From a virus (lineage: Duplodnaviria; Heunggongvirae; Uroviricota; Caudoviricetes), in the IMG/VR virus record IMGVR_UViG_2693429524_000011: 8,999 nucleotides of DNA; one strand, given 5' to 3'. Below are positions 7,286 through 8,999 of this stretch, piece after piece. Under the pieces are notes generated by a model. That model had not been told where the DNA came from and made no database searches. It worked only from the letters and a program-made list of their open reading frames with translations. Every line of letters begins with the position of its first letter. Positions within the stretch are counted from its first letter, which is position 1. Both the position numbers and the translations under genes were made by a program.

Positions 7286-7417
7286 CATGGTGTTCACAGA
7301 ACACGCAGTTACCGGACACATCAGTTTTCCATTCGCTCCCCGGCAGTACAGGCTTCCCCTCTGACGGGATAGCCTGAAAAAATAACACAGAAAATTATTT
7401 GTTATAATTAATATAAC

Positions 7418-7558
7418 TTACTCAAAAAAAAGCGACGAGAAAATCAGCATCAACGAACAATAAGCGCCAATACGTGATAACAAATGGCAGCCATATTTAT
7501 CTGCAGTATAAGCAATGGACAGGATAACCACACCAGAAACCGTCAGCATAAAATCCAT
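7418..7558 (-). CDS. Candidate 44-aa hydrophobic small protein (not in the ORF track, which omits ORFs under 60 aa)
   Basis: Hand translation of the minus strand from ATG at 7558: MDFMLTVSGVVILSIAYTADKYGCHLLSRIGAYCSLMLIFSSLFFE*, with stop at plus 7418-7420. GGGGAAG lies about 7 nt upstream of the ATG. It has two hydrophobic stretches and sits in an AT-rich intergenic region. Confidence 0.35.
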   Translation of the reverse strand: MDFMLTVSGVVILSIAYTADKYGCHLLSRIGAYCSLMLIFSSLFFE

Positions 7559-8203
7559 TTGAACTTCCCCGGACAAAATCGACTCATCTAAAGATTTACA
7601 GCTCTTTTTATTATCAATATGTTAAAAGTAAAATAAACAGATGTTCAATAACACGAATACAAAAACGTGCTGAAATTCAATGAATCCATTTCTGTGTCAT
7701 CAATTAATAGTGATAAACATCCGGCTTCTTCCACCATCGCACCGGACAGGCGGCTATGAGGGGACAACGCCGCGCTCCGTTAACGCGGTAAACCCCGGTG
7801 TGTATCGTTTTTGATTATCCCCGCACACTCGCGCAGAAGGAATTCCCCGTCGGGCTACGGTCATGGTTAATGCGGGAATACGGCGACGATACAGCGCATA
7901 ATGTGTCAGGCTTGAATACCTTTATCCGTTAAAAGGGATATCAGTTAAGTTATCCCGTGTAGGGTATAAGCCATTGTCGAGACCACTCATTGAATGGCCT
8001 CTGCAATAACCGATGTCTTTCCATCAGTCCGCCACCACAAAGAATCTTTTTTGCCTTAAGGCTGGAGCTTCATCTTTCAGTGGCTGCCAGTGTTATTTCC
8101 CCACTTACTGGCTTGGGTTGTTTCGCTGTACTGCCGTAACTGGTTGCCAAGAATAAATTCTGGTTTCATTATCAAGCCCACCCGTAGATAGGCTTTGTCA
8201 TGG

Positions 8204-8491
8204 CTACTTCTTCAGAAATGATTCGATGAATTCACGTCGGGGATGACGATAGTTCAGAATATCTTCTGGCATCCTCATAAAGCGGTTGTTGCCGTCTTTG
8301 GCAGTAACAAAACAGCTGTGAACTCCGCAGACATCCGTTTTTATTGTGTCGCTATACTCAAAAAGCAACTGAGCCATCTTCTCTTGCCATTCTGGCGGCA
8401 TAGCCTCCATGAATACTCGCGGCATCACGCAGAACGGCGCATGCGTAAGACCAAACCACAGTTGCAGGTCTTTACGATATTCTTCATCCAT
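8204..8491 (-). CDS. Hypothetical 95-aa prophage cargo protein with a possible His/Cys metal-binding motif
   Basis: ORF-track protein MDEEYRKDLQLWFGLTHAPFCVMPRVFMEAMPPEWQEKMAQLLFEYSDTIKTDVCGVHSCFVTAKDGNNRFMRMPEDILNYRHPRREFIESFLKK. It is in late-operon orientation between the Rz remnant and cos, with a weak AAAGG Shine-Dalgarno. Contains H17, C21 and C55-x2-H58-x-C60. I do not recognise the family. Confidence 0.55.
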   Translation of the reverse strand: MDEEYRKDLQLWFGLTHAPFCVMPRVFMEAMPPEWQEKMAQLLFEYSDTIKTDVCGVHSCFVTAKDGNNRFMRMPEDILNYRHPRREFIESFLKK

Positions 8492-8509
8492 CGTCTTTAC
8501 CTTTGTTGC

Positions 8510-8535
8510 AATAAAAAGCCCCGCGAATGCGAGGC
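8510..8535 (-). terminator. Candidate intrinsic terminator on the minus strand, downstream of the Rz remnant
   Basis: Minus-strand RNA GCCUCGC-AUUC-GCGGGGC followed by UUUUUAUU: a 7-bp stem with one G-U pair and a 4-nt loop. The plus-strand equivalent has a C-A mismatch and no U-tract, so the signal is strand-specific. Confidence 0.45.
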
Positions 8536-8709
8536 TAAATCCTGGTATTTGTAATGACTGGCTCTTATCTCAACGCAGCCCCTTACCGCGCGCAAGATGC
8601 TCAATATCAAGCATCAGCAATGAGATGTTTAATCTGGATTCACTCCAGAAGTGTTCACCACCCTGTCTACAGAGCCAGATGTGAAGAATGATAAGTAAAA
8701 TTATCGCTA

Positions 8710-8875
8710 TCATCGAAGGCATTGCGTCCTGATGTATTCCTGAAGCGTTCTCAGTGCTGTTTGGTCGCTGATGATTCCGTCCCGGATACCGAGAACGTTT
8801 CGTCCAGCAACTGGAGAGAGTTCGACGGTGGCATCATTGCCCATGCCGGAGGCGCTGGAGGCTTCGGCTGAGGAT
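8710..8875 (-). pseudogene. Rz: C-terminal fragment of the Rz i-spanin, truncated at its 5' side by the IS insertion
   Basis: Minus-strand translation from the IS boundary: SSAEASSASGMGNDATVELSPVAGRNVLGIRDGIISDQTALRTLQEYIRTQCLR*. It resembles the lambda Rz C-terminus (...RLITMQKQLEGTQKYINEQCR*). Stop at plus 8710-8712. Confidence 0.7.
8751..8875 (-). pseudogene. Rz1: C-terminal fragment of the Rz1 o-spanin, embedded in Rz in the +1 frame; signal peptide and lipobox missing
   Basis: Minus-strand +1-frame translation PQPKPPAPPAWAMMPPSNSLQLLDETFSVSGTESSATKQH*, proline-rich like the lambda Rz1 stretch ...CVKPPPPPAWIMQPPPDWQ.... Stop at plus 8751-8753. Confidence 0.6.
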
Positions 8876-8999
8876 TGAACCGCCCCGGAAATCCTGGAGA
8901 CTAAACTCCCTGAGAAAGAGGTAAACAGGATGACTAAAAATACTCGTTTTTCCCCCGAAGTCCGTCAGCGGGCGATTCGTATGGTTCTGGAAAGTCAGG
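8876..8999 (+). mobile_element. Left end of an IS3-family insertion sequence (IS629/IS1203-like); continues past the window end
   Basis: Terminal sequence TGAACCGCCCCGGAAATCCTGGAGACTAAACTCCCTGAGAAAGAGGTAAACAGG precedes the orfA start; this matches my memory of the IS629 left inverted repeat region. The element abuts the truncated Rz/Rz1. Confidence 0.8.
8930..8999 (+). CDS. IS3-family transposase OrfA, N-terminal 23 codons (partial)
   Basis: Translation MTKNTRFSPEVRQRAIRMVLESQ... from ATG at 8930, with GAGG about 10 nt upstream. Recognised as the IS629/IS1203 OrfA N-terminus. Confidence 0.8.
   Translation, partial: MTKNTRFSPEVRQRAIRMVLESQ

Follow-up and report, generated by a model that had tools for sequence, protein, structure and literature searches.

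A candidate structured RNA in the cargo slot that separates the lysis genes from cos in a defective lambdoid prophage of Escherichia coli

Introduction

Polycistronic phage messages are processed by RNase III at hairpins such as T7 R1.1 and its relatives, lambda sib and the N leader; these separate the segments of a message and leave protective hairpins behind. H-type pseudoknots within mRNA serve autoregulation in the T4 gene 32 leader and in Escherichia coli rpsO. Packaging of lambda DNA works in vitro without RNA. Here we describe a conserved element of 185 nucleotides (nt), whose existence as a structured RNA of the late strand is well supported by the covariation between its copies. It was found in an 8,999-nt stretch of phage DNA (IMG/VR record IMGVR_UViG_2693429524_000011), which is referred to below as the window and to which all coordinates refer unless another source is named. 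The window derives from a defective lambdoid prophage of E. coli, and the interval that holds the element is a slot for mosaic cargo, bounded by the lysis cassette on one side and cos on the other.

An initial annotation of the interval 7286-8709 had reported that bor, which occupies this place in lambda, is missing, and had singled out the small genes found there instead as the best place to look for an uncharacterised function. The absence of bor was borne out. Searches with 933W Bor and lambda Bor (tblastn) gave a best E of 0.5, no open reading frame (ORF) of the interval matches Pfam Lambda_Bor, and no Bor-like lipoprotein ORF of about 97 amino acids (aa) lies on the strand opposite to the late genes. 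A bor-less slot with small unknown genes is, however, an accurate but ordinary observation. The most rewarding feature of the interval is its GC-rich island, which is a conserved RNA element and not a protein gene; this RNA is the strongest-selected part of the interval.

Results

Anatomy of the element

The element occupies 7716-7900 on the minus strand, which is the late strand, and is recognised there by covariance model R1 at 221 bits, near the top of the family. It coincides with the GC-rich island of the initial annotation (54-59% GC, against 27-46% in the stretches on either side). The island had also been called structured. Folding energy gives this no support, being unexceptional (z = -1.26 for the element, -0.27 with its flanks), whereas covariation supports it strongly. 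The fold described here is a consensus of 23 diverse copies obtained with RNAalifold, which predicts long-range helices.

The 5′ domain (7802-7892, minus strand) is predicted to form a long irregular hairpin, and the consensus matches the single-sequence minimum-energy fold. Helix P1 (7886-7892 with 7802-7808) closes P2, P3 and P4, with conserved internal loops that include AUCAAAA. Together the four helices comprise 27 pairs broken by internal loops, an anatomy that is compatible with, but not diagnostic of, an RNase III site, for which about two turns of irregular duplex were taken as the anatomical mark. In the most diverse alignment (A6, below) these helices are 97-100% paired, and compensatory changes occur in 14 of the 27 pairs.

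The 3′ domain (7719-7796, minus strand) is supported by covariation. Here P5 (GGGG/CCCC) encloses a variable hairpin, P7, and is followed by a putative H-type pseudoknot. Stem S1 pairs 7750-7754 with 7736-7740 (5 base pairs, bp) and stem S2, also termed P8, pairs 7741-7747 with 7719-7725 (7 bp); loop 1 is 2 nt long and loop 3 reads GGUGGAAGAA. In the copy of the window, S1 contains one C·A mismatch, between 148C and 164A of the element. Two unpaired segments, AUAAUCAAAAAC and GGUGGAAGAA, are highly conserved and stand beside covarying helices.

Covariation, strand and coding capacity

Covariation was relied upon because the folding energy was not significant. In alignment A6, which holds the 27 most diverse copies (from E. 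coli phages, ES18, DLP12, Enterobacter, Raoultella and Morganella), 96.4% of cells are paired, compared with 33-61% in controls whose partners were slid by 1-3 columns, and changes on both sides occur in 28 of 43 pairs, compared with 7.0±1.8 in column shuffles (0/500). Two further alignments gave support of the same kind, but weaker. In alignment A3 (68 distinct copies) 98.0% of cells are paired and double changes occur in 12 pairs (against 4.5±1.2); the pairing percentages of the modelled helices in both A3 and A6 are inflated by the fitting of these alignments to the covariance model. Alignment A2, made with MAFFT and fitted to no structure, gave 96.6% paired and 10 double-change pairs (against 4.8±1.1).

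The register of S1, in which GUCGC of the linker pairs with GCGAU in the 5′ part of the terminal loop, was spotted by eye and is absent from the model, so that none of the alignments was fitted to it. In A6 it is 95.4% paired, and four of its five pairs covary (GU/CG/GC/AU; UA/CG/UG; CG/AU/GC), whilst slid controls reach 19-72%. The corresponding values are 97.6% paired in A3 and 97.3% in A2, with three to four of the five pairs covarying, depending on the alignment. All seven pairs of S2 covary in A6. Two crossing helices, each with compensatory changes, are thus present, as an H-type pseudoknot demands. An alternative register, pairing GGUGG of the P8 loop with CCGCC, was weighed by eye and dropped, the covarying register being GCGAU/GUCGC.

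Cells with G·U outnumber those with A·C by 357 to 10, suggesting that the structure has been selected on the late strand, the minus strand of the window. No reading frame stays open across the copies, which differ by 1-nt insertions and deletions and by a 9-nt deletion. A consensus scan matched no promoter or terminator at the element, weak or unusual promoters lying beyond such a scan; no U-tract follows P8 and none is conserved in the 3′ flank. A stand-alone small RNA (sRNA) gene would have its own conserved promoter and a Rho-independent terminator; what was found instead was 12 types of upstream flank, some of them coding to within 3-9 nt of the element.

The element appears to be uncatalogued. 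Rfam 15, searched with lax filters over 831 nt (7380-8210), returned chance matches only (E of at least 0.12, far below the gathering scores), and a scan of the whole window with Rfam gave no match to the element; the comparison took in AgvB, AsxR, Esr41, STnc100, IsrK and known ribozymes and riboswitches. Strings of the core sequence had no match in the full-text literature searched, and nothing relevant to the element was found in the literature on borD/ybcV/sRNA, on lambdap78/79 or on RNase III.

Distribution of the element

A BLAST search found the stretch of about 185 nt in 398 phage records, nearly always at full length. The carriers are lambda-like, HK97-like, 933W-like (Shiga toxin, Stx) and P22/ES18-like phages. 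Moreover, 4144 of 5426 complete E. coli genomes (76%) carry the element, at 10,812 places and up to 11 per genome. In the RefSeq records sampled from these places it is usually unannotated, with either no annotation over it or an overlapping ylcI gene. With covariance model R1, 131 viral, phage and window sources yielded a single full-length copy each, and all 133 copies that the model found in the loci examined are full length.

More distant copies score 153 bits in ES18, 123 bits in Raoultella, 98 bits in Enterobacter prophages and 60 bits in Morganella. The DLP12 copy of E. coli K-12 scores 122 bits and lies between borD and ybcV (NC_000913.3 579007-579178; locus L133 3008-3179), and the lambda copy scores 116 bits and lies between bor and lambdap78 (46866-47036; locus L156 1867-2037). 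Qin retains only a 17-bit remnant (locus L134 4464-4565). A degenerate-pattern scan of genome contigs returned 15 loci, nine of which carry the element (Raoultella and Morganella among them), the other six being chance matches. Four of the nine are labelled Pseudomonas yangonensis, Thiomicrorhabdus, Nanosynbacter and a Proteobacteria metagenome-assembled genome, and hold near-identical E. coli-type copies. These are likely to be contamination with enterobacterial phage DNA, since the contigs in the first three cases, at 351-4030 nt, are very short.

Genomic position of the element

Conservation stops sharply at both ends of the element. Among some 130 loci, 12 upstream and 13 downstream flank types occur in 38 combinations, which points to a discrete module and agrees with the earlier view of the slot as a place of variable accessory cargo. 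Orientation is constant: Rz lies upstream on the same strand (48/48 loci), Nu1 downstream on the same strand (45/45 loci) and the DUF3950 gene, where present, beyond the element on the opposite strand (61/61 loci). In about 58 of the 130 loci, terS or Nu1 is the late-strand gene that follows, at a distance of 110-320 nt. The most compact context found is that of Enterobacter prophages, where the element follows a homologue of the 95-aa gene of the window by 3 nt and ends 52 nt before terS (locus L138 5001-5528); the Enterobacter copy is also the one with most compensatory changes. In BP-4795 the element begins 9 nt after Rz. Phages with four different terminase types carry the element near their packaging region.

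Other features of the slot

Read along the late strand, the slot comprises the Rz stump, a 50-aa ORF, a terminator-like hairpin, the 95-aa gene, a structured spacer, the 185-nt RNA, a doubtful 46-aa ORF, the opposite-strand DUF3950 gene and cos. The 50-aa ORF and the hairpin had been overlooked initially. That the functions of these genes are uncharacterised proved correct: every one of them is 'hypothetical' in RefSeq and in phage records, none matches PADLOC, and Pfam and NCBIfam name just one, the uncharacterised DUF3950/YlcI-YnfO. The arrangement as such is not out of the ordinary. A block (6864-8206) containing cos, the DUF3950 gene, the 46-aa ORF, the island and the spacer recurs at 96% identity in E. 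coli genomes among the matches listed, with a KilA-N gene in place of the 95-aa gene. The initial annotation had named a common and already characterised arrangement as the case that would speak against it; the arrangement is indeed common, but it is not characterised.

The 95-aa gene (8204-8491, minus strand; WP_000343114 of the Prokaryotic Genome Annotation Pipeline, PGAP) has the late orientation first ascribed to it. It consists of one widespread phage domain standing alone, and matches phrog_3527 (E = 6.6e-55) over positions 139-230 of 233, a C-terminal match because in many relatives the domain forms the C-terminus of proteins of 100-490 aa. Homologues that likewise stand alone (94-105 aa, with identities as low as about 55%) are common in Enterobacterales (Salmonella, Enterobacter, Klebsiella, Yersinia, Erwinia and Dryocola), and a profile search of 1.84 billion representatives gave 1385 cluster representatives of the family at E <= 1e-3. 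The version in the window is present in just 72 of 5426 complete E. coli genomes. An AlphaFold2 model of the protein (predicted local distance difference test score, pLDDT, 84) had no match in the PDB by structure and fold searches, and the family has no Pfam entry. Its usual place is just behind the lysis genes. In prophages of Yersinia and Enterobacter this place is constant, directly after holin, lysozyme and spanin on the late strand and ahead of Rha/KilA-N or terS, which makes it a regular gene of the late operon.

The 46-aa hydrophobic ORF (7418-7558, minus strand; PGAP WP_000347013) had been recorded with 44 aa. The ORF is present, but its length is 46 aa from the ATG at 7558, or 52 aa from a TTG at 7576. 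It belongs to no family in Pfam, PHROGs, NCBIfam or PADLOC, and the profiles of these four databases gave no match to a type I toxin (Hok/Gef and similar). Homologues occur only in E. coli, at identities of at least 84%, and are too few and too similar for a test of selection; besides the window's own locus, 11 of about 130 further element-bearing loci have the ORF. Whether it is a real gene is uncertain. The small proteins have thus not proved the best lead, the 46-aa ORF being confined to E. coli and the 95-aa protein unassignable after profile, structure and fold searches.

The DUF3950-like ORF was confirmed as a member of the YlcI/YnfO family (PF13132, 67.5 bits against a cutoff of 25; NF041551, 35.2 against 30 bits), although at 7100-7285 on the plus strand, opposite to the late genes, it lies beside cos and just outside the interval 7286-8709. 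In all 61 loci with this gene it stands beside cos or Nu1 on the opposite strand, and the same layout is seen for ylcI (DLP12) and ynfO (Qin) in K-12. In the titles and abstracts listed, DUF3950, YlcI and YnfO receive incidental mentions only, and no functional study was found there.

Between the 95-aa gene and the element lies a non-coding spacer (7901-8203, minus strand), the ORFs of which have no family match in Pfam or PHROGs. It folds into a row of hairpins far below shuffles in energy (z = -3.76). Its final 100 nt or so often accompany the element, the part 7901-8003 being common to about 46 element-bearing loci, and the part 7951-8137 is homologous to the convergent rha-pid intergenic region of the P22-like phage BTP1. 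The spacer may extend the RNA at its 5′ end or serve as a terminator region in both directions.

The 50-aa ORF (8570-8722, minus strand; PGAP WP_053878044) has a hydrophobic N-terminus, overlaps the stop codon of Rz and matches phrog_11822 over its full length (E = 2.4e-37). It is found in 24 element-bearing loci, always upstream of the element and on the same strand, and could encode a small membrane protein that has so far escaped notice in the lysis region. The ORF recurs right after Rz in mEp460, PhiR70_1 and these 24 loci. Between the 50-aa and 95-aa ORFs, a consensus scan gave a terminator-like hairpin with a T-run (8517-8536, minus strand; 8 pairs, six of them G-C, and the tail TTTTATT).

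Rz, named initially as the border of the interval, is represented by Rz sequence at 8710-8844 (minus strand), which is merely a C-terminal stump. It matches positions 85-125 of 126 in Pfam Phage_lysis (25.2 bits against a cutoff of 25.4), and PGAP records a pseudogene, 'incomplete, missing N-terminus', of which the last 44 codons or so are left; neither the profile nor PGAP gives a full-length Rz i-spanin with an N-terminal membrane anchor. The gene is cut by the left end of IS1203 (IS3 family; 8876-8999, plus strand), annotated by PGAP as IS3-like IS1203 transposase with its ATG at 8930; the start of the inverted repeat at about 8876 is our own reading of the sequence.

The prophage and its cos region

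The head and tail genes from W to M are deleted from the prophage, which is therefore unable to form particles. The large terminase subunit gene A (4274-6199, minus strand) directly adjoins a C-terminal piece of the tail protein gene L (about 4042-4270). As the prophage is defective, the locus is probably inert in this strain. Nu1 was identified at 6174-6719 on the minus strand (Pfam Phage_Nu1, E = 9e-101). Just upstream of it, at about 6897-6908, is a 12-base site, CGCCTTCCGCCC, which by comparison with lambda cos we take to be a cosN-like cohesive end; the Rz-to-cos interval would then span about 6909-8709. The lambda counterpart is AGGTCGCCGCCC, and since the two differ, the cos overhang of this prophage would be unlike that of lambda despite a closely related Nu1. 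Between cos and the start of Nu1 lies a long hairpin that looks perfect (6738-6805), which gave rise to spurious microRNA matches in Rfam and is presumably the counterpart of the inverted repeat that precedes Nu1 in lambda. Elsewhere in the window, a 483-aa ORF (312-1763, plus strand) lies in antisense orientation opposite the tail-fibre gene J; almost certainly this is no gene but a by-product of the long antisense frame, which is free of stops.

Discussion

The best explanation overall, to which we give about an even chance, is that of a cargo slot with a late-strand RNA in the late transcript, acting as a processing or stability module. The element would most likely be transcribed as part of the Q-antiterminated late transcript, since it has no conserved promoter and no intrinsic terminator and in compact phages lies 3-9 nt from the preceding late stop codon. 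It may then act as an RNA at the border of the lysis and packaging modules, which is the least certain step, and most likely as a module of processing or stability. The irregular 5′ hairpin of about 25 bp could be an entry site for a nuclease of the RNase III type, or a barrier to 3′ exonucleases that protects the lysis message, whilst the pseudoknot could provide the terminase and head message with a 5′ structure that protects it or binds a protein.

Several points weigh against this explanation, in addition to the unexceptional folding energy and the inflated pairing percentages given above. The functional step is drawn from anatomy, from position and from the known mRNA processing of T7 and lambda. 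The ES18 copy has two C·A mismatches in P2. The copies of lambda and DLP12 are without the 9-nt linker that forms one strand of the pseudoknot, and their P5/P7 have decayed, so that either the pseudoknot is dispensable or these copies are decaying. In lambda-type phages up to about 1.2-1.5 kb, with opposite-strand genes and cos, separate the element from Nu1, and a distance this large disfavours a simple role as terminase leader. Finally, defective prophages, this one and DLP12 among them, have kept the element, and such retention would fit a function in lysogens too.

More broadly, the element may do more than stabilise mRNA and represent an uncatalogued class of functional phage RNA, whether protein-binding, trans-acting or self-processing, that governs the hand-over from expression of the lysis genes to that of the packaging genes or counters host defence. 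This is possible but less likely than not, and we put it forward tentatively. If true, such a class has been overlooked in lambda itself (46866-47036) as well as in Stx phages and the majority of E. coli genomes.

A rather unlikely alternative to a processing module is a trans-acting non-coding RNA, cut from the late transcript or made from an unrecognised lysogen promoter, that binds a protein or RNA of the host or phage as a regulator, sponge or anti-defence decoy. Loss of the pseudoknot in lambda and DLP12, the large distance to Nu1 and the retention in dead prophages keep this role open. The adjacency of the conserved unpaired segments to covarying helices would suit it, as would the independence of the module between mosaic flanks and its maintenance in defective prophages and three quarters of E. 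coli genomes at several places in one genome. Lambdoid prophages are, moreover, known to encode regulatory sRNAs (PMC4104026; bioRxiv 10.64898/2026.05.13.724894). However, there is no conserved promoter, the upstream flank being variable and coding to 3-9 nt away, no U-tract follows P8, and at 185 nt the multidomain element is unlike the Hfq-dependent prophage sRNAs of 50-100 nt. An identity with AgvB or AsxR was considered and rejected: the primary 5′ ends of both have been mapped, their place is the pR′ moron site ahead of the lysis genes (PMC4104026), and their models gave no match. Nor is the element among the RNAs listed around the Pas sRNAs (bioRxiv 10.64898/2026.05.13.724894).

It is unlikely that the interval is decaying filler of a dead prophage, no part of which still functions in this strain. 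Decay would account for the missing head and tail genes from W to M, the interruption of Rz by IS1203, the one mismatch in the pseudoknot of the window and the lack of relatives of the 46-aa ORF outside E. coli. Yet the 95-aa, 50-aa and DUF3950 ORFs are intact and the RNA copy scores near the top of its family; moreover, decay would concern this copy alone and not the nature of the elements.

A function of the element at the level of DNA is very unlikely, whether as a 'linker' for recombination where two modules meet, as a site for the binding of a protein or as a single-stranded structure in replication or packaging. It would accord with the sharp borders exactly at a mosaic junction and with the location near the packaging region of phages with four terminase types. 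However, selection on a site in duplex DNA would produce neither compensatory changes nor a pseudoknot, nor would it favour G·U over A·C by 36:1 on one strand, although single-stranded DNA likewise tolerates G·T pairs.

Least of all is the island a small protein gene, such as the 67-81-aa 'Rz-like spanin' or hypothetical protein of some phage records: a 36-aa ORF of the window (7754-7864, minus strand) does match phrog_6954 'Rz-like spanin' (E = 2.6e-9) and coding sequences are annotated over the element in ST2-8624, PA28, mEp460 and others, but the phrog_6954 frame is not kept open among homologues, the longest open run on the late strand is only 29-38 codons in locus L077, ES18, DLP12 and Enterobacter, the copies differ by the insertions and deletions described above, substitutions keep base pairs and not codons, and most records and RefSeq have nothing annotated there, so that the hypothesis was rejected and these coding sequences are most plausibly misannotations.

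Few genomes have been studied as closely as those of lambda and the Shiga-toxin phages, yet the element has no Rfam family. As a pseudoknotted RNA with a set position in the late operon, supported by covariation, it would offer a handle on how lysis, packaging and structural proteins are produced in unequal amounts from one 25-kb transcript. Its recognition would correct recurring misannotations, and the covariance model can be used for the annotation of prophages. The 95-aa protein, for its part, marks a large phage domain family (the 1385 cluster representatives above) that has neither a Pfam entry nor a structural relative.

The locus can be set beside several known systems. Like phi29 pRNA, the element would be a structured phage RNA of about 170-185 nt beside packaging genes; this is a resemblance only, and the Rfam scan found no similarity between them. 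Like AgvB, AsxR, Esr41, STnc100 and PasA-D, it is a candidate non-coding RNA carried and spread by lambdoid prophages; the prophage sRNAs of pathogenic E. coli are shorter than the element, however, and their Rfam models miss the window. The slot itself corresponds to that of lambda bor and DLP12 borD, at the same place between Rz and cos, and bor is the immediate neighbour of the RNA element in lambda, 933W and DLP12; in the window, by contrast, bor is replaced by the 50-aa ORF, the 95-aa gene and the spacer.

With the T4 gene 32 and rpsO pseudoknots the element shares a compact predicted pseudoknot (stems of 5 and 7 bp, a 2-nt loop 1 and a purine-rich loop 3), followed by an A/U-rich stretch upstream of late genes. 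It differs from them in that its distance to the start codon ranges from 52 nt to more than 1 kb and that one strand is gone in lambda and DLP12; nor is it known to bind a protein. RNase III sites lack the second, pseudoknotted domain of the element and have neither sequence similarity to it nor a match through Rfam. What the element shares with them is a long irregular hairpin with asymmetric internal loops, placed between late cistrons, and it is on this likeness that we propose it may be cleaved in the same manner.

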